57,853 nt of DNA from a virus (lineage: Duplodnaviria > Heunggongvirae > Uroviricota > Caudoviricetes). Positions 1 to 57,853 of the stretch are shown here, piece by piece (positions within the stretch are counted from its first letter, which is position 1; every line of letters begins with the position of its first letter). The notes below the pieces were generated by a model that ran no database searches, was not told where the DNA came from, and saw only the letters and a list, made by a program, of their open reading frames with translations. Made by a program: the position numbers and the translations under genes. The DNA lies in IMG/VR virus record IMGVR_UViG_2663762886_000011; one strand, written 5' to 3'.

Positions 1-1236
1 CTACGATAACCGCGCATTCAACATGGCTACCTGTTCGTCGTTCATGTCATCAATCCACATACCGTAAATTTCATACACCATCTGCGCAGTTTCATGCCCC
101 ATCTGGCTGGCTATAAACGCCGGGTTCGCTCCTGCCGTCAACAGCCAGCAGGCAAAAGTATGCCGCGTATGGTACGGATTACGGCGGCGAATACCAGCAC
201 GTTTTACTGCTGCATTCCATCTCGCACCCAAACTGCTTACCGAGTAATAAGGTTTCTGTTTTCCGTTACACACTCTGGGCATGAAAACAAAATGCAGTTT
301 TTGCTTTTCGGTTCTGCCGTACTCCCGATGATAAAAAGTGATTTCGCTTTTGCGATGATGCCCGGTCAGTTTGTATTGCTCCTTCAGTGCTTCAAGAGCA
401 GGCTGCAGTAGTGTTACCGTCCGGATCCCCGCATTTGTTTTTGGGGGACCGAACATATCCAGTATCGTCAGGTTTCTTCTGACATTCACAACTCCCTTCT
501 CGAAATCCACATCCTCCCACGCCAGAGCAGCCAGTTCCCCGTGACGAAGCCCGGAGTATACGGCAAATTTCCACAAGTTCTGGCTCTGTCCTTTTTCACT
601 TTCCATTAATGCATTGAATTCTGTTTTAGATAACGGGTCAGGCTTTATTCTGTTTCTCTGTAATTTCTTTACTCCTTCAAATGGTTTGGTTGATATAAAT
701 CCCGACTGATACGCAAAACGTAACAACGAACAGAGCAGGGCGATATAGTTATCAACTGTGCGCACGGTTCTTCCTTTTTTGTTGGATCTTGGATTATCCA
801 GGTAAAGCGTTTCTCCATGCAGCAGTTCATTCCGGTAGTTTAAGATATCGCTATAACGAATATGCGATATCGGAGTACTCTCACAAATTATTATCCTGAG
901 TGTTTTTAATTGTGATTTCGTTTTCTTCATTGTGTTTGTTGTTAACTCTGTTTCTTTAATTTTTGTCCAGATATCACAAAGCTCCCCGAACGTTTTTATG
1001 ACCCTCGTTGTCACCATTTTTGCCCCAGTGCTGGACTGGGGAAAACGTCTTAAATACTCAAACTCACCGGAATTGATTTCATGAACTATCAACGCTCTTA
1101 AATTCCCGGCTTTTTTAATGTTACTGTTAGTAACCTCCCAGCCTTTCAATGTTTCCCGACATCGTTTTCCTCGAAACATGAACCAGATGCGAATGTATTT
1201 ACCTCGAATCTCGACACCTGTTGGTAATTTAGACAT
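1..1236 (-). CDS. intR: Prophage integrase, tyrosine recombinase, 411 aa
   Basis: Complete minus-strand ORF whose stop abuts the window edge; translation matches Rac-type integrase as I recall it; excisionase gene lies immediately upstream as in lambdoid int-xis modules. Confidence 0.9.
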   Translation of the reverse strand: MSKLPTGVEIRGKYIRIWFMFRGKRCRETLKGWEVTNSNIKKAGNLRALIVHEINSGEFEYLRRFPQSSTGAKMVTTRVIKTFGELCDIWTKIKETELTTNTMKKTKSQLKTLRIIICESTPISHIRYSDILNYRNELLHGETLYLDNPRSNKKGRTVRTVDNYIALLCSLLRFAYQSGFISTKPFEGVKKLQRNRIKPDPLSKTEFNALMESEKGQSQNLWKFAVYSGLRHGELAALAWEDVDFEKGVVNVRRNLTILDMFGPPKTNAGIRTVTLLQPALEALKEQYKLTGHHRKSEITFYHREYGRTEKQKLHFVFMPRVCNGKQKPYYSVSSLGARWNAAVKRAGIRRRNPYHTRHTFACWLLTAGANPAFIASQMGHETAQMVYEIYGMWIDDMNDEQVAMLNARLS

Positions 1237-1237
1237 A

Positions 1238-1453
1238 TCATGAGTCTTTGATAAACTGATTTATCTTTGGATAGTTATACCAGATAATCCCTCGCTTACT
1301 GTCTGGCTTCCCTAAAGGAGATACTCGTTTGAAGTGGAAGCCTTCCACCCAACAGTTCTGGCGGTATGCTTCAATTTGTCTGGCCCCCAGACCAGTGCGA
1401 AGCATCAGGCCGTATTCAACCATCCACTCTTCATTAAAGATTACTTGTGCCAT
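1238..1453 (-). CDS. ydaQ: Excisionase-like protein, 71 aa
   Basis: Small ORF upstream of int, start taken at internal Met ([10 protein letters not shown]...); length and position match Rac ydaQ/xis. Confidence 0.75.
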
Positions 1454-1552
1454 CGCATCACCTCTGGCAGGCGCCAATGTTAGACTTAAATTGACGCCCG
1501 ATGTTGATTATTAATAATCAGCTATGAAGTTTTAATTTGAATACAATGCAAT

Positions 1553-1741
1553 TCACGAGGACTGAAGTTTCTCGCAATTAAAATTTATCAGTTTTACTTT
1601 CTGCTCTCTGGAAACGCCTGCTTCTTTTTTACCTGAGAGCATTTTTTCGCATTCTGATTTCGTTAGTTTAGATTTTGAATATCTTGTCCAGTTAGTAGGA
1701 GTGCCACCTTCCTTTTCAATAGTGGCGGTAATTTTATACAT
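1553..1741 (-). CDS. Small Rac early-left protein, YdaC-like
   Basis: Track ORF 1553-1813; start placed at internal ATG (MYKITATIEKEGG...) that overlaps the ralR stop; upstream extension of the track ORF is the ralR 3' region read in another frame. Confidence 0.5.
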   Translation of the reverse strand: MYKITATIEKEGGTPTNWTRYSKSKLTKSECEKMLSGKKEAGVSREQKVKLINFNCEKLQSS

Positions 1742-1928
1742 GAACACCTCCATTATTATTTCCAGTGGTTCGTTTATTTCATCGTTCGAGTGCTTCTTTT
1801 TCACTTCCACCATAACCGGTTCGGGATTCGCATCCGTTACACTTCGCTCGGTAATATCCTGAAATGGCTTTCACCGTTACTGATGGACAACCACAAAATG
1901 GACATGGTTTAACATTGTCATATCTCAT
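1734..1928 (-). pseudogene. ralR: Restriction alleviation protein RalR/Lar, interrupted by in-frame TGA
   Basis: Complement translation gives MRYDNVKPCPFCGCPSVTVKAISGYYRAKCNGCESRTGYGGSEKEALER, then TGA (1779-1781), then in-frame NKRTTGNNNGGVHV and stop; reads as RalR with Trp codon changed to opal. Confidence 0.6.
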
Positions 1929-1983
1929 AATTTTTCTCATAAAAATATTTCAAGTTGGCGGTGCATTACACCGCCAGGCTGAA

Positions 1984-2793
1984 TTATTCCTCTGAATTAT
2001 CGATTACACTGTATTCCCCGGTTAATACAGAGGAATCTGCAGGATCGATTGTCAGTGGTTCCTTTTCATCCATTGATACTGCACGCTGGATCTCAATTGA
2101 TACGGGCAGATATTTGAACAGGCGACGAATAGCCGTTTTCTTTGCCATTTCTTCCCAGTGAGTTACCCACGGCCCGTTATTACCAGCTTTACTCTGGCTG
2201 CGCACCAGCTCAATCTGTTTGCGCGTCATAACTTCAAACTGAGTACCTCCGTCTTTCAGTCTTGCGACAGCATAGACGTGGGTAACAGGGGCATCTTCGT
2301 TTTCTCCTGGGCGGTGTATTAACTTTTCATCAAGGCCAAATTCGAAATTAAACTCGTCACCTTCACGGACAACACGGGCTGACAGGCTGGCGATTTGACC
2401 TGAACGGCGAGCCAGATCAATCATGCCGCGATAGCCAATGATTAGCTGAACGTTTTTTTTACCGCTCTTTTCGTTTTTATTACCAAAAGGCAGTAAATAT
2501 GCATGACCGAGGGCGCTACCGGGCTCAAGTCCGAGCTGTGAACACTGTACGATTGCACTGACAAAACTCATAGTGTCACAGTTTCCTAACGCCGGAACTT
2601 TACGAATTTCTGTGGTGGCGATACGGATCATACGTTCAGCCGTCATATGGCGTGGAAGAGCTGCTGCCAGTTGCTCTTTCATTGATGGCTGGTTAATAAA
2701 ACTAATCACGTCGTTATTTTTAATTGCTGCTGGTGCACGGTTTCCCTGAGTTTTTTGCAGATCGGCTTTTGCGATTGGTGGTTGCTTAGTCAT
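1984..2793 (-). CDS. recT: Recombinase RecT, single-strand annealing protein, 269 aa
   Basis: Translation from [17 protein letters not shown]... matches RecT; immediately downstream of recE with 8-nt overlap. Confidence 0.9.
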
Positions 2794-5386
2794 TTGCATA
2801 TTCCTTAGCCCAGCGGGGCAGTGATAACGTCTTAATAGCTGGCCATTCATCGGTATTGAGGCAGTCAGCCAGGGTTCGCAGATTGCGGTGATATTCCAGC
2901 TGACCTGCCAGTTTTGCTTCTTCGCCCATCATGAAAATTTCAACCGGATAACGTCCGCATTCAATAGTTGTGCTGGCAACCAGAAAAACGAAAGTTGGCT
3001 GCACTCCAAACTGTGCTTCATAACCGTCACTGTAGAATGCATCCTGAACGTGATAGCGGTAGTCGTAATAAGCGGTTTTGAATCGTTGAATATCCGCCGT
3101 AGTTTTCACGTCCATGATCCAGTGAAATTCAGGGATAATTTTGTCCGGACGGCACCGACACAAAATTGCTGTTTCAGGATCTTCCCAGTAAATTGATGAT
3201 TCAGCGTGTCCGGCGCTTTCAACAAGCCATTGCCCCAGCGGCAAAGCCATAACGCTCTGATACATGAGTTCAATTTTCCGGCCTTCTTCGGCAGTGATAA
3301 CCGTTTTTCCTGTGCTTGCGCATTCCCTCAGAAACGCTTTCTCTTCTTCTTTTCCGGAGTTTGTCCGGCGGTTAAATTCAGGTGCTACGATAAAGCGGTT
3401 ACTGAATTCTTCCGGCTCAAGTACCCGGCAGTGGAAAGCGGTTCCTAAATCGAGCGTTTTTGTCTTTGTGGTGTCCACGGGGGCATTTTTACGCCACAAA
3501 TACAGTGCCGGAGTATCAGCAATGTCATCGAGCTGAGACTTACTGACACCGGGACCCGCGTGGTAATTCTCATTCGAAATTCCGTAATAAATACCTGGCT
3601 CTATGTCTTCTACGATTACGGGATCTGCGACTTCGCCAGTTTCATCACTGCAATCGCGATGCGGATCGCTGCCAGCATTCTCATTGTGCGGATGTTCAGC
3701 GCCTTCCATTTCCTCCGGATCATTTTCCTTAGCTTCAACCTGACTCTCTTCATCGAATGTTTCCTGGTATGTTGCGTCGCCCATCACCGCACCACAGTCA
3801 GGGCAGTTATCCCCGCCAGTCTGGCCGCAGGCATTGCAGGCTATTTCCGGTTCCTGTTGCACTACTGGCTCAGGTTGATTCATATCCGGGCTGGTTTTTT
3901 CCGTTTCTGGCTGGTTCTGGTACACACAATCGCGAGTCTGGATCCCCTTTACCCATTTCGGATCGTTCGGGTCGCTAATTCCGTCAACAAATTCACCACG
4001 TGATGCAGCAAGCAATTTATCGGCATCGACAGGATTTTTTGATGGAATGTTTTTCCGGGCTTCATGGAGTTCTGCCCGCAGTTCCTGATATTTCGCATCA
4101 ACAGAATTTACCTGTGACTGAGCATCCAGCGGCTGCGTGTCCTGATGATGTTCAGTTGCGTCCGGTTCCATTGTTTCAGCCTCTCCCTGTTCAACTGCCG
4201 TTGTTCCAGATGGTTGCGGTTTTTCTTCATCATCCTGTTTTCCTTCTTCTGTTACTCGCTGCGGCATCGGGGCAGAGGAGCGACCGCAGGCAATATCCAC
4301 GATTTCCGGATCAGGGTTGGCATGATCGGTTTCAGTCAGTACTTTGTTCAGATATTCAGTGACGTGCGCGGGGATGACCTCGATCCCAATTGGTGCTTCT
4401 TTTACGGACGCAACCACGATGGCGCGGGAATAATCCAGCCCGCCAGGCATGGTGATGAATTTGTCGCGGAAAACAGAAAAGGGCGGTTTATTTTCAGCGA
4501 TAATTTCCTCAATGCGTTTAGCGTGTGCCGGATGAAGGTTATAGATGTCCAGATCCATTGAACGGGCCAGTACGCCAGTGGCTACGTCCCGCGCCAGTGA
4601 CGTCAGATCGTGTACGAAACCTTCGCCGCGATCGGTGAGGTTTCCGCCGCCAGCATTAGCACCGGAAGCCGTGCGAGTGATGTGTGAAACACGATTACCC
4701 TTCATCCACTCTTTTGTCAGCAGTCCTCGATCGGTGTAGTCAGCGTTCAGGTATGCTTCGAAAAAAGCAGTTATCAGTCCCAGGTTTGAATTACCAGGAT
4801 TAGGGAAAACTTTGTCAGTGTCACGAACCAGTTTGTGGAGTTCGCGAATTTCCAGCGGGTCGAGCAGGCTGGTTTTGTGGGAAACAGCCAGGGCAGTAAC
4901 AGCCGGTAGTTCTTCAGCCCGAGCAATGTGTAATGCCTGGAGTCCGTCGCGTGAAACGTGCGTTACCGGTTTTTCGCTGCCGTGTTGAGCAAGCCAACGA
5001 ATGGGCAGTTCCTGGCCAGAAATTGGGAGTAGCATATTCTCCTCAATCTCAGTCATGTCTTCGCCGTTGACGTTGGTATTGCCTTGATAGTGAGCGTTGT
5101 CTGGTGCTGCTCCCGGTTTTAGTTCCCATGTCATGGAGTCTTTGCTGAGTTGATAGCGTTCACTCCAGGTAAAATCGATCTCACCTTCAGCGGGCAGGTC
5201 ATTAACGACAGGAAAATTCGTGGCAACAGCTTTAAAATAGCTGCTCAGTTTTTTACCTGACTTAACGATCAGGTAGTCCAGAGTGGCACAGGTCGATTCA
5301 AAATCGTTGCTTGCCCACAGGACGACGTCAGGTTCACCGGATGATTTTTTCGCTTTCCGTAACAGGAAGAGTGGTTTTGTGCTCAT
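2786..5386 (-). CDS. recE: Exodeoxyribonuclease VIII RecE, 866 aa
   Basis: 866-aa ORF with RecE-like sequence and length, upstream of recT. Confidence 0.9.
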
Positions 5387-5487
5387 TGTTTTTTAACCTC
5401 AACTCAGATTAAAATTCGTTTTGTTCAGTGAATGATCTTGCCGGATACACACTGTTCATAGCCTGCGCCATACGCAGGCTATTTCTT

Positions 5488-5763
5488 TCAGATTTCACCT
5501 TTTAATTTCATTGCAATTAGAGTTGCCAGAAATTCGGCTTTTTTTTCTGCGGGCAGATTCTTTCCGATATGCACCAGGCACATTTTTTTGACACCTTCAT
5601 CAAGTGTTTTTACGTTGCCTGATGGACCATCGATATCAACCACAGTGAATGGGGTTTCTTTATTTTCTGTTTTAATTACGTAGCCAATGCGCTTTCCTTC
5701 CAGATTCACCTCGTGAACAATGTCATCGGTAGTTACAACAGTGGCTTCATAATTGGTAATCAT
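5488..5763 (-). CDS. racC: RacC protein, 91 aa
   Basis: Start at internal Met (MITNYEATVVTTDD...); position between recE and kilR as in Rac. Confidence 0.75.
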   Translation of the reverse strand: MITNYEATVVTTDDIVHEVNLEGKRIGYVIKTENKETPFTVVDIDGPSGNVKTLDEGVKKMCLVHIGKNLPAEKKAEFLATLIAMKLKGEI

Positions 5764-5837
5764 GTTTTTCTCCTTAATTAAGGTTGAGCGAATACCTGCC
5801 ATTTCTGGCATAAATTCAGTTTCGAATAGTCAATTAA

Positions 5838-6008
5838 TTAAAGTTCATGTGCCATCTGGTCTTTTTCGGCACAAGCTTCACTGCAATATTTTCTCGGTTC
5901 GTCTTTTGATAAAATCCCGTGCATGAAGTGAAGCATTCTTTCAATAGCTTTGCTTTCTTCAACGTCTTTTTTGCAAAGGTGGTAAGCACATTTTATTTTC
6001 TTAGTCAT
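5838..6008 (-). CDS. ydaE: Small Cys-rich protein YdaE, 56 aa
   Basis: Not in ORF track (under 60 aa); complement translation [56 protein letters not shown]; ATG directly follows kilR stop. Confidence 0.6.
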   Translation of the reverse strand: MTKKIKCAYHLCKKDVEESKAIERMLHFMHGILSKDEPRKYCSEACAEKDQMAHEL

Positions 6009-6229
6009 CACCATGACTCCGCCTTTACAGGTAAACCATCACGACCGAGGAAGACTTTAATCATGCGGTCAGTAATGCATGTTTTTGTGGTCAGGTTACG
6101 AATATATAGTTTTCGCTTTTTAATATTGTTTGCCGAGGCAATATATGTCCGGCCTTCATGAAGAACATAATCGCCAGGAGTCACACACTGACGTGGTATT
6201 TCATCAGTTCCGAAGTGATGTGCAATCAT
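6008..6229 (-). CDS. kilR: FtsZ inhibitor KilR, 73 aa
   Basis: Translation from [26 protein letters not shown]... matches KilR; track ORF trimmed to internal Met. Confidence 0.8.
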
Positions 6230-6670
6230 AATTATCTCCATTTTTACAAATGAACTTTGTTGATGCGGTGCCTGGTGCCTCCAGGTGACTGCAACCAGTT
6301 AACAATTACAGTCGGCTTTCCCACCCAAACCAATAAGGACTAACATGACTTTTAACTGTGCCACGTGCGCTTAGCCGCATTCACCGCATCACAAAATTCA
6401 CTTTAAAAAGGGCGGACATCAGCCGAACTTCAAGAAAAAAACTGATGCCGCCAGGACTACACACAGCAATGTCGTTATTTACAACCGGAGGCGCACTCCC
6501 ACCATTTAAATTTAACAGACAAGACCGACTCTTTATGGATATCGGAAATGCGCCTTCGTGTTGTGCCCGGTTTTATTTCACCACCTCCGGGCTTCGGTGG
6601 TCTCGGCTATACCCCTACAGCGAGAGCTTGTGTTAACATTTCAATACCCTTACAGTTGAGAGTTATTGAT

Positions 6671-24217: not shown

Positions 24218-25312
24218 ATGAGCAGACCGGACTGGGGGGCGTTGCAGCAGGAGTATATTGCTGAATACACCCGCTCCGGTATATCTCCGGTGGCATGGTG
24301 TGAAGCAAGGGGACTGAATTACGCAACAGCCCGTCGTTACATCAAAAAAACTCCGAAAAATGCGCAGACAGAAATGTGCAAAACTGCGCAAAAAAGTGCG
24401 CAGAAAAAATCTGCGCAGACTGCACAAAAGCGGAACGAAAAATCTCAGGAAAAAAAGCCAGTATTCGATGCGGGCCTGAATGAGGGCGACGCGGAGGAAT
24501 TTTCGTTCTGTCCCGATGAATTCGGCATTTCTGACCAGCAGGCTAAGTTTGCGATGCTTGTTGCTCAGGGTAAAAAGCCGACAGAGGCGTACCGACTAGC
24601 CGGTTATGAGGGGCAAGGTGCGACAGCTAACAGCAACGCCAGTCGTATGCTTAGAAATGCCAGGGTTTTTCGCGCTATCAGCTACTTCCGCAATCAGTAC
24701 CAGAAACGCTATACCGCAGACCTGGATTTACTAGTGAGTCAGTTGATGGCTATTGTCCTGGCCGACCCCAATCAGCTTGCACAATTTCGCCGTGTTAACT
24801 GCCGTTATTGCTGGGGCGAGAATCATCTCTACCAGTGGCGCGATATAGCAGAATTCGACAAGGCAGCGGCGCAGGCTTCCAGAGATGGCAAACCCGAACC
24901 GGAATATGGAGGCCTCGGCTTTGTTGATAACGCCATACCCAATCCGGACTGCCCGAAGTGCTGCGGTGAGGGAACGGGACAGCTTTATATGGCTGATACC
25001 ACTCTGCTTGATGGGGATGCGCGGCAATTATATGCAGGGGCAAAATTCGGAAAATTCGGCGTTGAGATCCTGCTGGAGGATAAGGCTGCCGCCCGGCGTG
25101 AATTGTTGCGTTTGTTTTCTGCTGGCGGGGCTTTATGTGCAGATAAGCGGCTACGGGAACTGGAAATTGAACGGCGCAGAATGGAAAACCAGAAGCTGCG
25201 CAAAGAGATCGAAACGGTGGAAGATAATGAACATCCCCAGCCTGTGGCGATCAATATTAATGTGGTTGATGCCAGAGTAAGGAGTGATGAAGATGATCTC
25301 TCCGACGCTTAA
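24218..25312 (+). CDS. Terminase small subunit
   Basis: N-terminal HTH and segment FAMLVAQGKKPTEAYRLAGY typical of TerS; precedes TerL. Confidence 0.7.
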   Translation: MSRPDWGALQQEYIAEYTRSGISPVAWCEARGLNYATARRYIKKTPKNAQTEMCKTAQKSAQKKSAQTAQKRNEKSQEKKPVFDAGLNEGDAEEFSFCPDEFGISDQQAKFAMLVAQGKKPTEAYRLAGYEGQGATANSNASRMLRNARVFRAISYFRNQYQKRYTADLDLLVSQLMAIVLADPNQLAQFRRVNCRYCWGENHLYQWRDIAEFDKAAAQASRDGKPEPEYGGLGFVDNAIPNPDCPKCCGEGTGQLYMADTTLLDGDARQLYAGAKFGKFGVEILLEDKAAARRELLRLFSAGGALCADKRLRELEIERRRMENQKLRKEIETVEDNEHPQPVAININVVDARVRSDEDDLSDA

Positions 25313-38183: not shown

Positions 38184-38514
38184 TACGGAAGAATTTCACT
38201 GGTTACCAGAGGATGGAATGAAAACAGAAAATAAACCATCGATAAAAACTGTAAGATTTGGTGATGGTTATGAGCAACGAAGTCCAAATGGACTTAATCA
38301 TTCTCTGCGCGTTTTCACCTGTGATTTCAAAGTTGAGGCGAATGAACGTGATTCATTTGAAAAATTTTTAGCCCGGCATGAAGGCTATAAATCTTTTTTT
38401 TGGCGCCCGCCGGGTATTAACAGAAAAATCAGAGTGGTGTGTCGAACGTGGTCAGCGACAGAACATATCACCTATACCGATTTTTCGTGTCAGTTTGACG
38501 AAGTGGTGATCTGA
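38176..38514 (+). CDS. Minor tail protein M-like, 112 aa
   Basis: Shares VRFGDGY...FLW.PP pattern with lambda M but otherwise divergent. Confidence 0.75.
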
Positions 38515-39212
38515 TGCAGGACATACAACAGGAAACGCTGAATGAATGCATTCGTGCGGAGCAGTCGGCCAGCGTGGTGCTCTGGGAAATCGACCTGACC
38601 GAGGTAGGCGGGGATCGCTACTTTTTCTGCAATGAGCAGAACGAGAAAGGAGAGTCTGTCACCTGGCAGAGTCGGCAGTATCAGGCCTATCCCATTCAGG
38701 GGAGTGGATTTGAGATGAACGGCAAAGGTGCCAGTGCAAGGCCAACGCTGAAAGTCTCTAATCTGCACGGCATGGTCACCGGGATGGCGGAAGACCTGCA
38801 GAGTCTGGTCGGCGGAACGGTGGTCAGGCGTAAGGTTTACGCCCGTTTTCTGGATGCGGTGAACTTCGTCAACGGAAACAGTGACGCCGATCCGGAGCAG
38901 GAGGTGATCAGCCGCTGGCGTATTGAGCAGTGCAGCGAACTGAGCGCGGTCAGTGCCTCCTTTGTACTGTCCACGCCGACGGAAACGGACGGCGCTGTTT
39001 TTCCGGGGCGCATCATGCTTGCTAATACCTGCACCTGGACCTATCGCGGTGATGAGTGCGGTTATCACGGTCCGGCTGTCGCGGATGAATATGACCAGCC
39101 AACGTCCGACATCACGAAGGATAAATGCAGCAAATGCCTGAGCGGTTGTAAGTTCCGCAATAACGTCGGCAACTTTGGCGGCTTCCTTTCCATTAACAAA
39201 CTTTCGCAGTAA
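38514..39212 (+). CDS. Minor tail protein L, 232 aa
   Basis: Nearly identical to the L copy at 55382-56080. Confidence 0.85.
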   Translation: MQDIQQETLNECIRAEQSASVVLWEIDLTEVGGDRYFFCNEQNEKGESVTWQSRQYQAYPIQGSGFEMNGKGASARPTLKVSNLHGMVTGMAEDLQSLVGGTVVRRKVYARFLDAVNFVNGNSDADPEQEVISRWRIEQCSELSAVSASFVLSTPTETDGAVFPGRIMLANTCTWTYRGDECGYHGPAVADEYDQPTSDITKDKCSKCLSGCKFRNNVGNFGGFLSINKLSQ

Positions 39213-39968
39213 ATCCCATGACAGAGACAGAATCAGCGATTCTGGCGCACGCCCGGCGATGTGCGCCAGCGGAGTCGTGCGGCTTCGTGGTGAGAACACC
39301 GGAGGGGGAAAGATATTTTCCCTGCGTGAATATTTCCGGTGAGCCGGAGGAGTATTTCCGGATGGCTCCGGAGGACTGGCTGCAGGCAGAGATGCAGGGT
39401 GAGATTGTGGCGCTGGTCCACAGCCACCCCGGTGGTCTGCCCTGGCTGAGTGAGGCCGACCGGCGGCTGCAGGTGCAGAGTGATTTGTCGTGGTGGCTGG
39501 TCTGCCGCGGGGCGATTCACAAGTTCCGCTGTGTGCCGCATCTCACCGGGCGGCGCTTTGAGCACGGGGTGACGGACTGTTACACGCTGTTCCGGGACGC
39601 TTACCATCTGGCGGGAATTGAGATGCCAGATTTTCATCGTGAGGACGACTGGTGGCGTAATGGTCAGAATCTCTATCTGGATAATCTGGAGGCTACAGGG
39701 CTGTATCAGGTGCCGTTGTCAACGGCGCAGCCGGGCGATGTGCTGCTGTGCTGTTTTGGTTCATCGGTGCCGAATCATGCCGCCATTTACTGTGGTGACG
39801 GCGAGCTGCTGCACCATATTCCTGAACAACTGAGTAAACGAGAGAGGTACACCGACAAATGGCAGCGACGCACACACTCCCTCTGGCGTCACCGGGCATG
39901 GCACGCATCTGCCTTTACGGGGATTTGCAGCGATTTGGCCGCCGCATCGACCTTCGTGTGAAAACGGG
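38790..39968 (+). repeat. Near-identical repeat of L-K region shared with second prophage
   Basis: From about codon 92 of L onward the two L proteins are identical and K is near-identical. Confidence 0.7.
39218..39961 (+). CDS. Tail tip assembly protein K (JAMM/MPN plus NlpC/P60-like)
   Basis: HSHPGGLPWLSEAD JAMM-like motif; 3' end runs into the N-gap. Confidence 0.8.
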   Translation: MTETESAILAHARRCAPAESCGFVVRTPEGERYFPCVNISGEPEEYFRMAPEDWLQAEMQGEIVALVHSHPGGLPWLSEADRRLQVQSDLSWWLVCRGAIHKFRCVPHLTGRRFEHGVTDCYTLFRDAYHLAGIEMPDFHREDDWWRNGQNLYLDNLEATGLYQVPLSTAQPGDVLLCCFGSSVPNHAAIYCGDGELLHHIPEQLSKRERYTDKWQRRTHSLWRHRAWHASAFTGICSDLAAASTFV

Positions 39969-39977
39969 NNNNNNNNN
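39969..39977. other. Assembly gap (9 N)
   Basis: Run of n characters. Confidence 1.
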
Positions 39978-40874
39978 GCACGCGCCCTTATTGCCCGGGG
40001 ATGGGGAGTAAGCTTAGTCAGCCGTTGTCTCCGGGTGTCGCGTGCGCAGTTGCACGTCATTCTCAGACGAACCGATGACTGGATGGATGGCCGCCGCAGT
40101 CGTCACACTGATGATACGGATGTGCTTCTCCGTATACACCATGTTATCGGAGAGCTGCCCACGTATGGTTATCGTCGGGTATGGGCGCTGCTTCGCAGAC
40201 AGGCAGAACTTGATGGTATGCCTGCGATCAATGCCAAACGTGTTTACCGGATCATGCGCCAGAATGCGCTGTTGCTTGAGCGAAAACCTGCTGTACCGCC
40301 ATCGAAACGGGCACATACAGGCAGAGTGGCCGTGAAAGAAAGCAATCAGCGATGGTGCTCTGACGGGTTCGAGTTCTGCTGTGATAACGGAGAGAGACTG
40401 CGTGTCACGTTCGCGCTGGACTGCTGTGATCGTGAGGCACTGCACTGGGCGGTGACTACCGGCGGCTTCAACAGTGAAACAGTACAGGACGTCATGCTGG
40501 GAGCGGTGGAACGCCGCTTCGGCAACGATCTTCCGTCGTCTCCAGTGGAGTGGCTGACGGATAATGGTTCATGCTACCGGGCTAATGAAACACGCCAGTT
40601 CGCCCGGATGTTGGGACTTGAACCGAAGAACACGGCGGTGCGGAGTCCGGAGAGTAACGGAATAGCAGAGAGCTTCGTGAAAACGATAAAGCGTGACTAC
40701 ATCAGTATCATGCCCAAACCAGACGGGTTAACGGCAGCAAAGAACCTTGCAGAGGCGTTCGAGCATTATAACGAATGGCATCCGCATAGTGCGCTGGGTT
40801 ATCGCTCGCCACGGGAATATCTGCGGCAGCGGGCTTGTAATGGGTTAAGTGATAACAGATGTCTGGAAATATAG
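39978..40874 (+). CDS. insD: IS2 transposase InsD, N-terminally incomplete
   Basis: See IS2 fragment; ORF continues from the gap to CLEI stop. Confidence 0.85.
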
Positions 40875-55056: not shown

Positions 55057-55382
55057 AAACCTTCCGCTGGAAAGTGAAACCCGGTATGGATGTGGCTTTG
55101 GCCCCTTCTGTAAGAAAGGTGCGCTTTGGTGATGGCTATTCCCAGCGAGCGCCTGCCGGGCTGAATGCCAACCTGAAAACGTACAGCGTGACGCTTTCTG
55201 TCCCCCGTGAGGAGGCCATGGTACTGGAGTCGTTTCTGGAAGAGCACGGGGGCTGGAAAGCCTTTCTGTGGACGCCGCCTTATGAGTGGCGGCAGATAAA
55301 GGTGACCTGCGCAAAATGGTCGTCGCGGGTCAGTATGCTGCGTGTTGAGTTCAGCGCAGAGTTTGAACAGGTGGTGAACTGA
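55053..55382 (+). CDS. M: Minor tail protein M, 109 aa
   Basis: Lambda M-like. Confidence 0.9.
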   Translation: MKTFRWKVKPGMDVALAPSVRKVRFGDGYSQRAPAGLNANLKTYSVTLSVPREEAMVLESFLEEHGGWKAFLWTPPYEWRQIKVTCAKWSSRVSMLRVEFSAEFEQVVN

Positions 55383-56080
55383 TGCAGGATATCCGGCAGG
55401 AAACACTGAATGAATGCACCCGTGCGGAGCAGTCGGCCAGCGTGGTGCTCTGGGAAATCGATCTGACAGAGGTCGGTGGAGAACGTTATTTTTTCTGTAA
55501 TGAGCAGAACGAAAAAGGTGAGCCGGTCACCTGGCAGGGGCGACAGTATCAGCCGTATCCCATTCAGGGGAGTGGTTTTGAACTGAATGGCAAAGGCACC
55601 AGTACGCGCCCCACGCTGATGGTTTCTAACCTGTACGGTATGGTCACCGGGATGGCGGAAGATCTACAGAGTCTGGTCGGCGGAACGGTGGTCCGGCGTA
55701 AGGTTTACGCCCGTTTTCTGGATGCGGTGAACTTCGTCAACGGAAACAGTGACGCCGATCCGGAGCAGGAGGTGATCAGCCGCTGGCGCATTGAGCAGTG
55801 CAGCGAACTGAGCGCGGTGAGTGCCTCTTTTGTACTGTCCACGCCGACGGAAACAGATGGCGCTGTTTTTCCGGGACGTATCATGCTGGCCAACACCTGC
55901 ACCTGGACCTATCGCGGCGATGAGTGCGGTTATCACGGTCCGGCGGTCGCGGATGAATATGACCAGCCAACGTCCGACATCACGAAGGATAAATGCAGCA
56001 AATGCCTGAGCGGTTGTAAGTTCCGCAATAACGTCGGCAACTTTGGCGGCTTCCTTTCCATTAACAAACTTTCGCAGTAA
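55382..56080 (+). CDS. L: Minor tail protein L, 232 aa
   Basis: Lambda L-like. Confidence 0.95.
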   Translation: MQDIRQETLNECTRAEQSASVVLWEIDLTEVGGERYFFCNEQNEKGEPVTWQGRQYQPYPIQGSGFELNGKGTSTRPTLMVSNLYGMVTGMAEDLQSLVGGTVVRRKVYARFLDAVNFVNGNSDADPEQEVISRWRIEQCSELSAVSASFVLSTPTETDGAVFPGRIMLANTCTWTYRGDECGYHGPAVADEYDQPTSDITKDKCSKCLSGCKFRNNVGNFGGFLSINKLSQ

Positions 56081-56085
56081 ATCCC

Positions 56086-57308
56086 ATGACAGAGACAGAA
56101 TCAGCGATTCTGGCGCACGCCCGGCGATGTGCTCCAGCGGAGTCGTGCGGCTTCGTGGTAAGAACGCCGGAGGGGGAAAGATATTTCCCCTGCGTGAATA
56201 TCTCCGGTGAGCCGGAGGCGTATTTCCGTATGTCGCCGGAAGACTGGCTGCAGGCAGAGATGCAGGGTGAGATTGTGGCACTGGTCCACAGCCACCCCGG
56301 TGGTCTGCCCTGGCTGAGTGAGGCCGACCGGCGGCTGCAGGTGCAGAGTGATTTGCCGTGGTGGCTGGTCTGCCGGGGGGCGATTCACAAGTTCCGCTGT
56401 GTGCCACATCTTACCGGGCGGCGCTTTGAGCACGGGGTGACGGACTGTTACACGCTGTTCCGGGATGCTTACCATCTGGCGGGGATTGAGATGCCGGATT
56501 TTCATCGTGAGGATGACTGGTGGCGTCACGGTCAGAATCTCTATCTGGATAATCTGGAGGCCACAGGGCTGTATCAGGTGCCGTTGTCAGCGGCGCAGCC
56601 GGGCGATGTGCTCCAGCGGAGTCGTGCGGCTTCGTGGTGAGAACACCGGAGGGGGAAAGATATTTTCCCTGCGTGAATATTTCCGGTGAGCCGGAGGCGT
56701 ATTTCCGTATGTCGCCGGAAGACTGGCTGCAGGCAGAGATGCAGGGTGAGATTGTGGCACTGGTCCACAGCCACCCCGGTGGTCTGCCCTGGCTGAGTGA
56801 GGCCGACCGGCGGCTGCAGGTGCAGAGTGATTTGCCGTGGTGGCTGGTCTGCCGGGGGGCGATTCACAAGTTCCGCTGTGTGCCACATCTTACCGGGCGG
56901 CGCTTTGAGCACGGGGTGACGGACTGTTACACGCTGTTCCGGGATGCTTACCATCTGGCGGGGATTGAGATGCCGGATTTTCATCGTGAGGATGACTGGT
57001 GGCGTCACGGTCAGAATCTCTATCTGGATAATCTGGAGGCCACAGGGCTGTATCAGGTGCCGTTGTCAGCGGCGCAGCCGGGCGATGTGCTGCTGTGCTG
57101 TTTTGGTTCATCGGTGCCGAATCATGCCGCCATTTACTGTGGTGACGGCGAGCTGCTGCACCATATTCCTGAACAACTGAGTAAACGAGAGAGGTACACC
57201 GACAAATGGCAGCGACGCACACACTCCCTCTGGCGTCACCGGGCATGGCACGCATCTGCCTTTACGGGGATTTGCAACGATTTGGCCGCCGCATCGACCT
57301 TCGTGTGA
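56086..57308 (+). pseudogene. K: Tail tip assembly protein K disrupted by 479-bp internal tandem repeat
   Basis: Track splits K into 56086-56640 and 56634-57308; segment about 56134-56612 repeats at 56613-57091, shifting frame. Confidence 0.75.
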
Positions 57309-57853
57309 AAACGGGGGCCGAAGCCATCCGGGCACTGGCCACACAGCTCCCGGCATTTCGTCAGAAACTGAGCGACGGCTGGTATCAGGTGCGCATTGCC
57401 GGGCGTGATGCAGGCGAAAATGAATTATCTGCCCGTCTTAATGAACCGCTGGCAAATGGTGCCGTGATCCACATCGTTCCGCGTCTGGCGGGTGCCAAAA
57501 GTGGCGGTGTGTTTCAGGCGGTGCTGGGTGCGGCGCTGATTGCGGTGGCATGGTGGAACCCTGTGGGCTGGCTGGGGGCCGCGGCTGTATCGGGTATGTA
57601 TGCAGCAGGGGCCAGTATGATCCTGGGTGGTGTGGCGCAGATGCTGGCACCGAAAGCCAGGACGCCCACGGCAGCCAGTACAGATAACGGCAAACAGAAC
57701 ACGTATTTCTCGTCACTGGATAACATGGTTGCCCAGGGTAATGTTCTGCCTGTTCTGTACGGGGAAATGCGCGTGGGGTCACGTGTGGTTTCTCAGGAGA
57801 TCAGCACGGCAGACGAAGGGGACGGTGGTCAGGTTGTGGTGATTGGTCGCTGA
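57206..57853 (+). CDS. I: Tail tip assembly protein I, 215 aa
   Basis: MAATHTLPLASPGMARICLYGDLQRFGRRIDLRVKTGAEAIRA... as lambda I; stop at window end. Confidence 0.9.
   Translation: MAATHTLPLASPGMARICLYGDLQRFGRRIDLRVKTGAEAIRALATQLPAFRQKLSDGWYQVRIAGRDAGENELSARLNEPLANGAVIHIVPRLAGAKSGGVFQAVLGAALIAVAWWNPVGWLGAAAVSGMYAAGASMILGGVAQMLAPKARTPTAASTDNGKQNTYFSSLDNMVAQGNVLPVLYGEMRVGSRVVSQEISTADEGDGGQVVVIGR

Follow-up and report, generated by a model that had tools for sequence, protein, structure and literature searches.

Does gene K in the lambda-like module of a tailed-phage record really carry a tandem duplication, or was the duplication created when the genome was assembled? The question is raised by IMG/VR virus record IMGVR_UViG_2663762886_000011, a stretch of 57,853 nucleotides that we refer to as the window. 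The deposited sequence contains a 479-nt head-to-tail repeat within K (56134-56612 / 56613-57091), and the same record holds a second, closely related K gene.

The repeat in gene K and its reading frames

Position-wise comparison of each base i with base i+479 gave the same base throughout 56123-56612, except at 56160, 56166, 56187 and 56202. Tandem Repeats Finder described the repeat in K with a period of 479, 2.0 copies, 98 % matches, no indels and a score of 1916, and a separate repeat search of the window also recovered the 479-nt tandem. Chance alone would come nowhere near producing a repeat so long and so nearly identical. An inverted repeat of 20 nt with 85 % identity (56116-56135 / 57388-57407) was judged to be a chance match. 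The repeat and its surroundings are arranged as follows:

56123-56133, + strand: natural 5' copy of GGCGATGTGCT, K positions 38-48
56134-56612, + strand: repeat copy 1, pure lambda-module allele
56602-56612, + strand: junction microhomology at the novel join, consisting of the natural 3' GGCGATGTGCT (K positions 517-527), followed by K position 49 at 56613
56613-57091, + strand: repeat copy 2, K positions 49-527
57081-57091, + strand: third GGCGATGTGCT, the 3' site of copy 2, followed by GCTGTGCTG, the normal continuation
57092-57315, + strand: 3' end of K in single copy, an allele mosaic

The 11-mer GGCGATGTGCT starts at 56123, 56602 and 57081, and occurs once more at 39734, which is the 3' site of the other K gene. 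In intact K genes it is located at K positions 38 and 517, and it is the sole exact direct repeat of at least 10 nt inside K. A short direct repeat is thus present at both ends of the repeated segment and at the join of the head-to-tail copies, as would be expected of a real duplication. At the 5' site the two alleles differ in the final base of the 11-mer (56133), with T in the lambda type and G in the Rac type; accordingly, the 5' site is a complete 11-mer in the lambda-type allele and matches over 10 nt only in the Rac-type allele. We compared the two copies with the closest complete chromosome to see which is native: removal of copy 2 left 13 mismatches in 4431 nt, and removal of copy 1 left 17.

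Intact K consists of 744 nt and encodes 247 amino acids. Because 479 (3 x 159 + 2) is not a multiple of three, the repeat splits K into two ORFs, listed here together with the intact second gene:

56086-56640, + strand: ORF1, 184 aa, the 5' 527 nt of lambda-type K followed by 9 out-of-frame codons and a stop
56634-57308, + strand: ORF2, 224 aa from a GTG start, K minus its first ~23 residues, with a partial JAB and a complete NlpC/P60 domain
39218-39961, + strand: intact Rac-type K, 247 aa, origin of the foreign alleles in copy 2

The ORF1 product contains a complete JAB/MPN domain (Prok-JAB) and the first part of the NlpC/P60 sequence; at the Pfam level this fragment is recognized as Prok-JAB only. 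In the deposited annotation ORF2 is called as a protein of 199 aa that starts at the ATG at 56709. K proteins of 199 aa are called elsewhere too, but these were rejected as further split K genes, as the genes concerned are intact, 744 nt long, and called from an internal ATG. The intact Rac-type K gave Pfam matches above the cut-offs to both Prok-JAB (PF14464) and NLPC_P60 (PF00877). The two fragments jointly hold the same domains, and the gene has the features of a gpK / C40 peptidase, i.e., a JAB and an NlpC/P60 domain in about 247 aa, encoded between L and I.

A sequence-only reading of this stretch had described a 479-bp direct repeat bounded by an 11-bp microhomology that occurs naturally near both ends of K, and a K gene split in two since the repeat length is not a multiple of three. 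The position-wise comparison and Tandem Repeats Finder confirm the repeat, the microhomology is indeed found at K positions 38 and 517, and the split corresponds to the ORFs of 184 and 224 aa.

Allele mosaic and gene order along the scaffold

The window contains two prophage modules. The first carries intR, xisR, racC, recT and recE, and window 1-6000 is 100 % identical to E. coli chromosomes. The second is lambda-like, with the gene order Nu1, A, W, B ... H (853 aa), M, L, K, I. The L-K-I regions of the two modules are 93-97 % identical, and the Rac-type K is located 17 kb upstream of the lambda-type K.

Two complete chromosomes served as references for the allele mosaic, NCTC10444 for the Rac type and CP104423.1 for the lambda type. 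The Rac prophage of NCTC10444 is collinear with window 1-39968 and shows three differences in the last ~4,450 bases, and the lambda-type module of CP104423.1 is 99.7 % identical to the window. At the site where collinear tail genes were expected, the chromosome of FORC_081 has a short Rac followed by paa/fea genes; NCTC10444 was used instead.

Copy 1 equals the intact K of close relatives at every informative site. In copy 2, the four bases that differ from copy 1 (56639 G, 56645 A, 56666 T and 56681 T) are the bases of the other K gene at 39292, 39298, 39319 and 39334, and all four cluster within the first 69 nt past the junction. They mark one further feature:

56613-56697, + strand: Rac-allele patch opening copy 2, with informative sites 56639, 56645, 56666 and 56681

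The last 16 nt of this patch (56682-56697) are identical between the alleles and separate it from the first lambda-allele site at 56698. Hence, all of the copy differences (4/4) belong to a second template present in the sample, the Rac-type K, as would be expected of a false duplication. A real duplication should yield copies that are identical at formation and acquire new mutations later; the four differences are instead alleles of the paralog.

The mosaic continues beyond the repeat. Across 56613-57394, each informative site agrees with one of the two parents, in the order Rac (4 sites), lambda (18), Rac (2), lambda (1) and Rac (7). After the four Rac-type sites of the patch come 18 lambda-type sites across 56698-57069, two Rac-type sites at 57182 and 57197, a lambda-type site at 57277 and seven Rac-type sites across 57316-57394. 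Past 57404 the identity with the lambda-type relative falls to ~91 %, while a single base, as far as the scaffold end, departs from the Rac-type locus of a neighbouring-accession assembly (L014). The lambda-type alleles of the terminal piece give way to Rac-type ones at 57316, which is the base right after the equivalent (57315) of the position where the Rac-type contig stops, and this base is preceded by 38 nt that are identical between the alleles. That the first module is of the Rac type, and that copy 2 starts with Rac K alleles and then returns to the local allele, had been proposed earlier from the sequence alone. The genes named above bear out the first proposal, and the mosaic bears out the second, with the switch placed between 56681 and 56698.

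Upstream of the junction, the two modules are more similar than they should be:

55946-56132, + strand: 187-nt run identical between the modules in this assembly only, from the 3' end of L to K position 47

This run stops one base before 56133, the first site of allele difference. Within 115 nt of it, true differences are erased at 55978, 56011, 56014, 56023 and 56092 in alternating directions. At 55978 and 56092 both copies have the lambda allele, and at 56011, 56014 and 56023 both have the Rac allele. The lambda-type copy departs at the latter three sites from four close relatives, and the Rac-type copy departs at 39110 and 39224 (the equivalents of 55978 and 56092) from NCTC10444 and most sister loci. 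K618 and K633 also show the Rac allele on both copies. Lambda alleles also turn up in the Rac-type K of other assemblies, at sites that differ from one assembly to the next (39412, 39722, 39835/39850 and 39930).

From these comparisons we judge that the 187-nt identity between the modules is not genuine. Alternating flips are predicted by a consensus choice made per bubble in collapsed repeats, and not by conversion tracts. Gene conversion should leave a contiguous tract in one direction, but there are five blocks downstream and three alternating patches in 115 nt upstream. Because the directions alternate within 115 nt, a single conversion tract cannot be the source. Furthermore, S. sonnei, the species to which the scaffold belongs, expanded only recently as a clone and varies very little in sequence, so that such a large number of independent conversions is unlikely. 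The faulty region is larger than 56100-57100: upstream its limit is at ~55946, and on the other side it takes in the rest of the window.

The position of gene I relative to the breaks in the record also has to be considered:

39969-39977, no strand: scaffold gap of 9 N, separated by 7 nt from the stop codon of Rac-type K; 39968 is the last base of the contig before it
57316-57853, + strand: gene I, carrying Rac-type alleles from its first informative site on

The end of the Rac-type contig at 39968 corresponds to 57315. The 9-N gap implies that the record is a scaffold, and the window is part of a scaffolded, Illumina-era short-read draft. The scaffold ends 115 nt past the window, which is 54 nt into J and 877 nt after copy 2. 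With a scaffold gap after the Rac-type K and the scaffold end past I, both K copies are located at assembly breaks; a location at or near a contig end or gap is typical of false duplications. Gene I and the start of J are absent at the 9-N gap, beyond which the sequence resumes inside an IS3-family transposase gene.

Most likely, gene I belongs after 39968 in the Rac-type module and not after the lambda-type K. When window 38514-39968 was joined to 57316-57853, the product matched NCTC10444 and NCTC9082 in one piece at 99.8 %. The actual L-K-I region of the window had a best match of 97.6 % among 5,426 complete E. coli genomes, and each of its best 40 matches spans 1,992-1,993 nt, which corresponds to an unduplicated K. 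In six neighbouring-accession assemblies (L014, L018-L020, L024 and L025), the Rac-type K is followed without a break by the same 202-aa I and by J. The order in L023 is I, 730 nt of J, N, IS, DUF1398, DUF3950 and Nu1. This order indicates that the succession of Rac, IS and lambda-type module in the window is probably real, and that the piece absent at the 9-N gap is the piece at the scaffold end. We also considered that the lambda-type prophage really gained the Rac-type I by recombination, and that I is a collapsed repeat. A true gain of I, although possible, would leave the alternating single-site flips unexplained, and it is at odds with the sister scaffold in L021, where an intact lambda-type K is followed by a lambda-type start of I.

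Occurrence of the junction and neighbouring assemblies

An exact look-up mapped the 184-aa ORF1 product, deposited as CST49169.1 / WP_072109572.1, to one contig, CXFW01000004.1 (69,372 bp) of the Shigella sonnei assembly GCA_001251215.1. This was the only contig with the ORF1 product, and thereby the junction, among ~15 billion proteins. The product was present in NCBI-derived sources only and not in Logan or ENA, which is a weak negative. We searched nucleotide collections with junction-spanning motifs of 23-43 nt. The junction motif had 0 matches in the viral contigs of IMG/VR, compared with 20 for the wild-type 5' site used as a control, and 0 matches in JGI metagenome contigs. A scan of genome contigs also gave 0 junction matches, but the wild-type 5' site was likewise absent there. 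Among the complete E. coli genomes, no match was found to a junction 43-mer of which neither half seeds alone; as the wild-type controls found the 5' allele with T in only 40 genomes, this negative has modest power. Of 58 loci that were fetched, one contains the junction, and this is the window's own contig. A junction query of 140 nt seemed to be covered in 3114 genomes, but these hits were rejected, as the tool had joined the 5' and 3' sites of K that are located 479 nt apart.

A total of 5,306 indexed blocks contain the exact lambda-type L protein, and an intact 247-aa K was present at 10/10 of the loci examined. The duplication is therefore absent from independent assemblies of relatives, which have an intact K at these ten loci and an intact lambda-type K in L021; this, too, is expected of a false duplication.

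Assemblies with neighbouring accessions show how the two L-K-I regions can come to lie side by side. In L021, a single N separates a lambda-type L'-K-I' of 1,069 nt from a downstream Rac-type L'-K-I that is 95.8 % identical, and a second tandem of 947 nt straddles another single N. In L017, a block of 1,255 nt is repeated at 97 % across a single N, with a third copy after a further N. In both assemblies the repeat unit starts immediately after the N every time. In these cases, paralogous contigs have been chained head to tail by the scaffolder. The window has the same layout, with a lambda-type piece followed by a piece that is led by Rac alleles, but here the join has been closed. The same error is thus found at the same locus in other samples, as tandems of 947-1255 nt at single-N joins, and the neighbouring accessions suggest that these samples went through a shared pipeline.

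Origin of the duplication and comparison with known systems

Judged read-free from the assembled sequences, the duplication in K is in all likelihood a false tandem duplication that arose by scaffolding or gap closing, and the K of the lambda-type prophage itself is probably ordinary and intact. The sequence-only reading had offered a choice between gene conversion between the two prophages and a chimeric assembly of their K copies. The second option is strengthened by the scaffold breaks, the mosaic, the homogenised sites and the neighbouring tandems, whereas gene conversion is not favoured.

The false duplication may have been formed as follows. During short-read assembly, stretches that are identical or nearly so between the Rac-type and lambda-type modules would collapse into shared pieces, and allele differences within the collapsed pieces would be resolved either way at random. 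One product would be a hybrid piece that starts at K position ~38-49, spans I and takes in the first 54 nt of J. The scaffolder would then set this hybrid piece after the lambda-type contig, which already holds K up to position 527. Because of the four allele mismatches in the true overlap of ~490 nt, an exact suffix-prefix test would miss this overlap and find only the 11-mer. The pieces would merge at this sole exact suffix-prefix match, the 11-nt GGCGATGTGCT, which would repeat 479 nt of K and break the frame.

The joining program was likely part of a pipeline of the type Velvet, SSPACE and GapFiller, as we infer from accession style, date and species. The prokaryote pipeline of the Sanger Institute uses Velvet, 16 rounds of SSPACE with a threshold lowered to five linking read pairs, and 120 rounds of GapFiller (Page et al. 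2016, PMC5320598). Its scaffolding and gap filling take only reads that are not proper pairs, the authors warn that SSPACE and GapFiller, being greedy, 'can lead to false joins', and the dataset includes 299 S. sonnei (PMC5320598). GapFiller trims 10 nt at the gap edges and extends by single bases with 30-mers (Boetzer & Pirovano 2012, PMC3446322); it halts at balanced alternatives, and by default closes a gap at an overlap of at least 10 nt (PMC3446322). The 38 shared nt before the stop of the Rac-type contig exceed the 29-nt context of GapFiller, in keeping with this stopping rule. A join of 11 nt is likewise long enough for the closing rule, with the submitter's -n setting taken to be the default. 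A join made by pure k-mer logic, i.e., by a de Bruijn path or by 30-mer extension, was rejected since 11 and 16 identical nt are too short. With switch identities this short, either two overlap merges (with a threshold of at most 11) or chimeric or aberrant reads are needed.

Reads of the latter kind are central to a variant of the artefact that we consider possible, though rather unlikely, in which the gap filler built the join from a few chimeric library molecules produced by PCR template switching between the K copies. With proper pairs removed and thresholds lowered stepwise, aberrant reads are enriched (PMC5320598). The patch between the short-identity switch points measures 85-96 nt, about one read length, and neither switch can be obtained by 30-mer extension of normal reads (PMC3446322). 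However, an overlap merge at the default n = 10 alone accounts for the junction, and the pipeline behind the record is only a likely one. We think it improbable that K was duplicated in the bacterium itself, by RecA-independent slipped misalignment or unequal sister-strand exchange at GGCGATGTGCT, followed by a Rac conversion patch of 43-85 nt, with inactivation of K. Slipped misalignment would leave just such a join, with an 11-nt microhomology that is the longest direct repeat in K, and the full 11-mer is present at the 5' site of the lambda-type allele compared with only 10 nt in the Rac-type allele. The join also lacks an N, and in k-mer assemblers joining information is normally read-derived. 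Moreover, two K copies of 93-97 % identity on one chromosome are a substrate for conversion, and alternating patches could in principle also come from patchy mismatch repair along a single long heteroduplex. Yet this history takes at least two independent rare events, and more to cover the switches at 57182-57197, 57277 and 57316 and the homogenised sites at 55978-56092. It would be unique among thousands of assemblies with the same L protein, and it would coincide with the patched part of the scaffold, where an N gap, a misplaced I and the scaffold end come together. In addition, neighbouring-accession assemblies show the same tandem layout in the form of obvious scaffold joins.

A single real event could produce both features of the repeat, namely a template switch of the MMBIR/FoSTeS type, guided by microhomology, from position 527 of the lambda-type K to positions 38-48 of the Rac-type K, with ~70-85 nt copied before a homology-guided return to the lambda-type K near positions 118-133. 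The junction is indeed the very start of the foreign patch, which is over within 85 nt, and there are short identities at both switch points (10-11 and 16 nt). We nevertheless hold such an event to be very improbable, as it leaves the three downstream allele switches and the homogenised sites upstream unexplained, the T of the junction is a G at the Rac-type 5' site, and the uniqueness of the junction and its assembly-break context also count against it. If the template-switch reading were true, K would present a bacterial templated-insertion duplication between co-resident prophages, in a clinical isolate of Shigella sonnei.

Under the favoured reading of a false tandem duplication, the repeat in K is most likely without importance as biology, and its value is one of data hygiene. 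The split K is present in public databases as a distinct 'C40 family peptidase' (CST49169.1, WP_072109572.1 and a UniRef100 entry), and the same scaffold misplaces I and conceals ~1.4 kb or more behind the 9-N gap. Prophage typing, pseudogene counts and inferences of recombination or conversion between prophages would be misled by drafts of this kind. The allele-mosaic test, in which informative sites are compared with two independent complete references, offers a cheap flag for such regions that works without reads.

How does the K locus compare with known systems? The gene shares with the gpK family of phage lambda ('C40 family peptidase') its JAB/MPN and NlpC/P60 domains and the L-K-I position in a Nu1-A-W-B...H-M-L-K-I module, but the deposited K consists of a JAB-only fragment and an N-terminally truncated copy. 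In bacteria, RecA-independent slipped misalignment at short direct repeats gives rise to tandem duplications. The K repeat resembles these in its head-to-tail copies and in the single copy of a short direct repeat at the join, which is the longest in the gene. In contrast to such fresh copies, which should be identical, copy 2 has four alleles of the paralog and the surrounding 2 kb are a mosaic. Co-resident lambdoid prophages undergo gene conversion and recombination, and the alleles of one prophage in the homologous gene of the other agree with this. However, the direction here alternates within 115 nt and the patches vary between otherwise near-identical assemblies, which fits a choice per bubble better.

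Greedy joining by SSPACE and GapFiller is matched by the short N runs in the record, the single-N joins in its neighbours and the contig stop at a balanced two-allele site, although the gap-size check of GapFiller should normally reject such a closure, and the pipeline and default -n are presumed for this record. False duplications through incorrect gap filling have been documented in eukaryote assemblies (Ko et al. 2022, Genome Biol 23:205, PMC9516828). As in these cases, one scaffold carries near-identical versions of a locus next to each other, the variants that separate the copies are those that distinguish the templates, and false or split gene models result. The site is likewise a gap or a wrongly closed gap at a boundary between identical and divergent sequence. 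The templates in the eukaryote assemblies are diploid haplotypes, whereas here they are paralogous prophages in a haploid bacterium, and the gap was closed without N on an 11-nt coincidence. By analogy, the K case can be regarded as the bacterial, paralog-driven equivalent of the false duplications in eukaryote assemblies.

Homogenised sites and gene I behind the lambda-type K

In the window assembly, five sites of the lambda-type module (55978, 56011, 56014, 56023 and 56092) are identical to the corresponding sites of the Rac-type module (39110, 39143, 39146, 39155 and 39224, respectively), although the two prophage copies should differ at all five. The direction of homogenisation alternates along the sites, from lambda to three times Rac and back to lambda. 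The five homogenised sites therefore create a spurious 187-nt run of identity between the prophage copies. A single base at 55099, in a region without homology to the Rac-type module, is T in the window and C in all four lambda-type relatives; this base may be a genuine SNP of the strain, or else the allele of a third paralog.

Gene I at the window end (57316-57853) is the Rac-type allele, with 99.8% identity to the complete E. coli chromosome NCTC10444. Its 202-aa product is identical to the one encoded after the Rac-type K in many assemblies, whereas relatives carry a different allele downstream of their lambda-type K. Hence, gene I was probably placed wrongly on the scaffold.

The frame-shifted, truncated product of 56086-56640, from the split lambda-type K, has become a separate public-database entry (CST49169.1, WP_072109572.1, UniRef100_UPI0006633A26), under the names C40 family peptidase and tail assembly protein. 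A 20-nt inverted repeat (56116-56135 / 57388-57407; 85% complementary, 1252 nt between the arms) overlaps the 5' microhomology of the split K with one arm, and was judged to be a match by chance.

The gap behind the Rac-type K and scaffolding chains

The sequence behind the intact Rac-type K contains the following features:

39969-39977: scaffold gap of 9 N, 7 nt past the stop of the Rac-type K
within 39978-40874: IS3-family transposase gene (HTH_21/rve; 263-aa call); the post-gap sequence opens inside this gene
after the transposase gene, minus strand: DUF1398 and DUF3950 genes
42144, after the DUF1398 and DUF3950 genes: Nu1

At the position equivalent to the gap, the NCTC10444 prophage runs on into I and J, as do those of other assemblies. 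The 9 N conceal at least ~1.4 kb, and the gap size is therefore badly underestimated. A sister scaffold (L023) suggests that the Rac-type J was cut short by this IS3-family element, with the lambda-type prophage following immediately after the insertion.

Two assemblies with neighbouring accessions (GCA_001255815.1 and GCA_001254215.1) contain paralogous L-K-I-J segments of 947-1255 nt each in tandem, at 3544-6609 of locus L017 and 899-5969 of locus L021, respectively. Single N characters separate the copies, which are evidently scaffolding chains.

The Rac-type prophage

The first module (1-39968) is a full-length Rac-type prophage, running from intR, xisR, racC, recT and recE to the tail genes. 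Its late region includes a 36-nt tandem repeat (24356-24429; 2.1 copies, 80% matches). The prophage is collinear with that of NCTC10444 over 38.5 kb, and far exceeds in length the short Rac remnant found in strains such as FORC_081.
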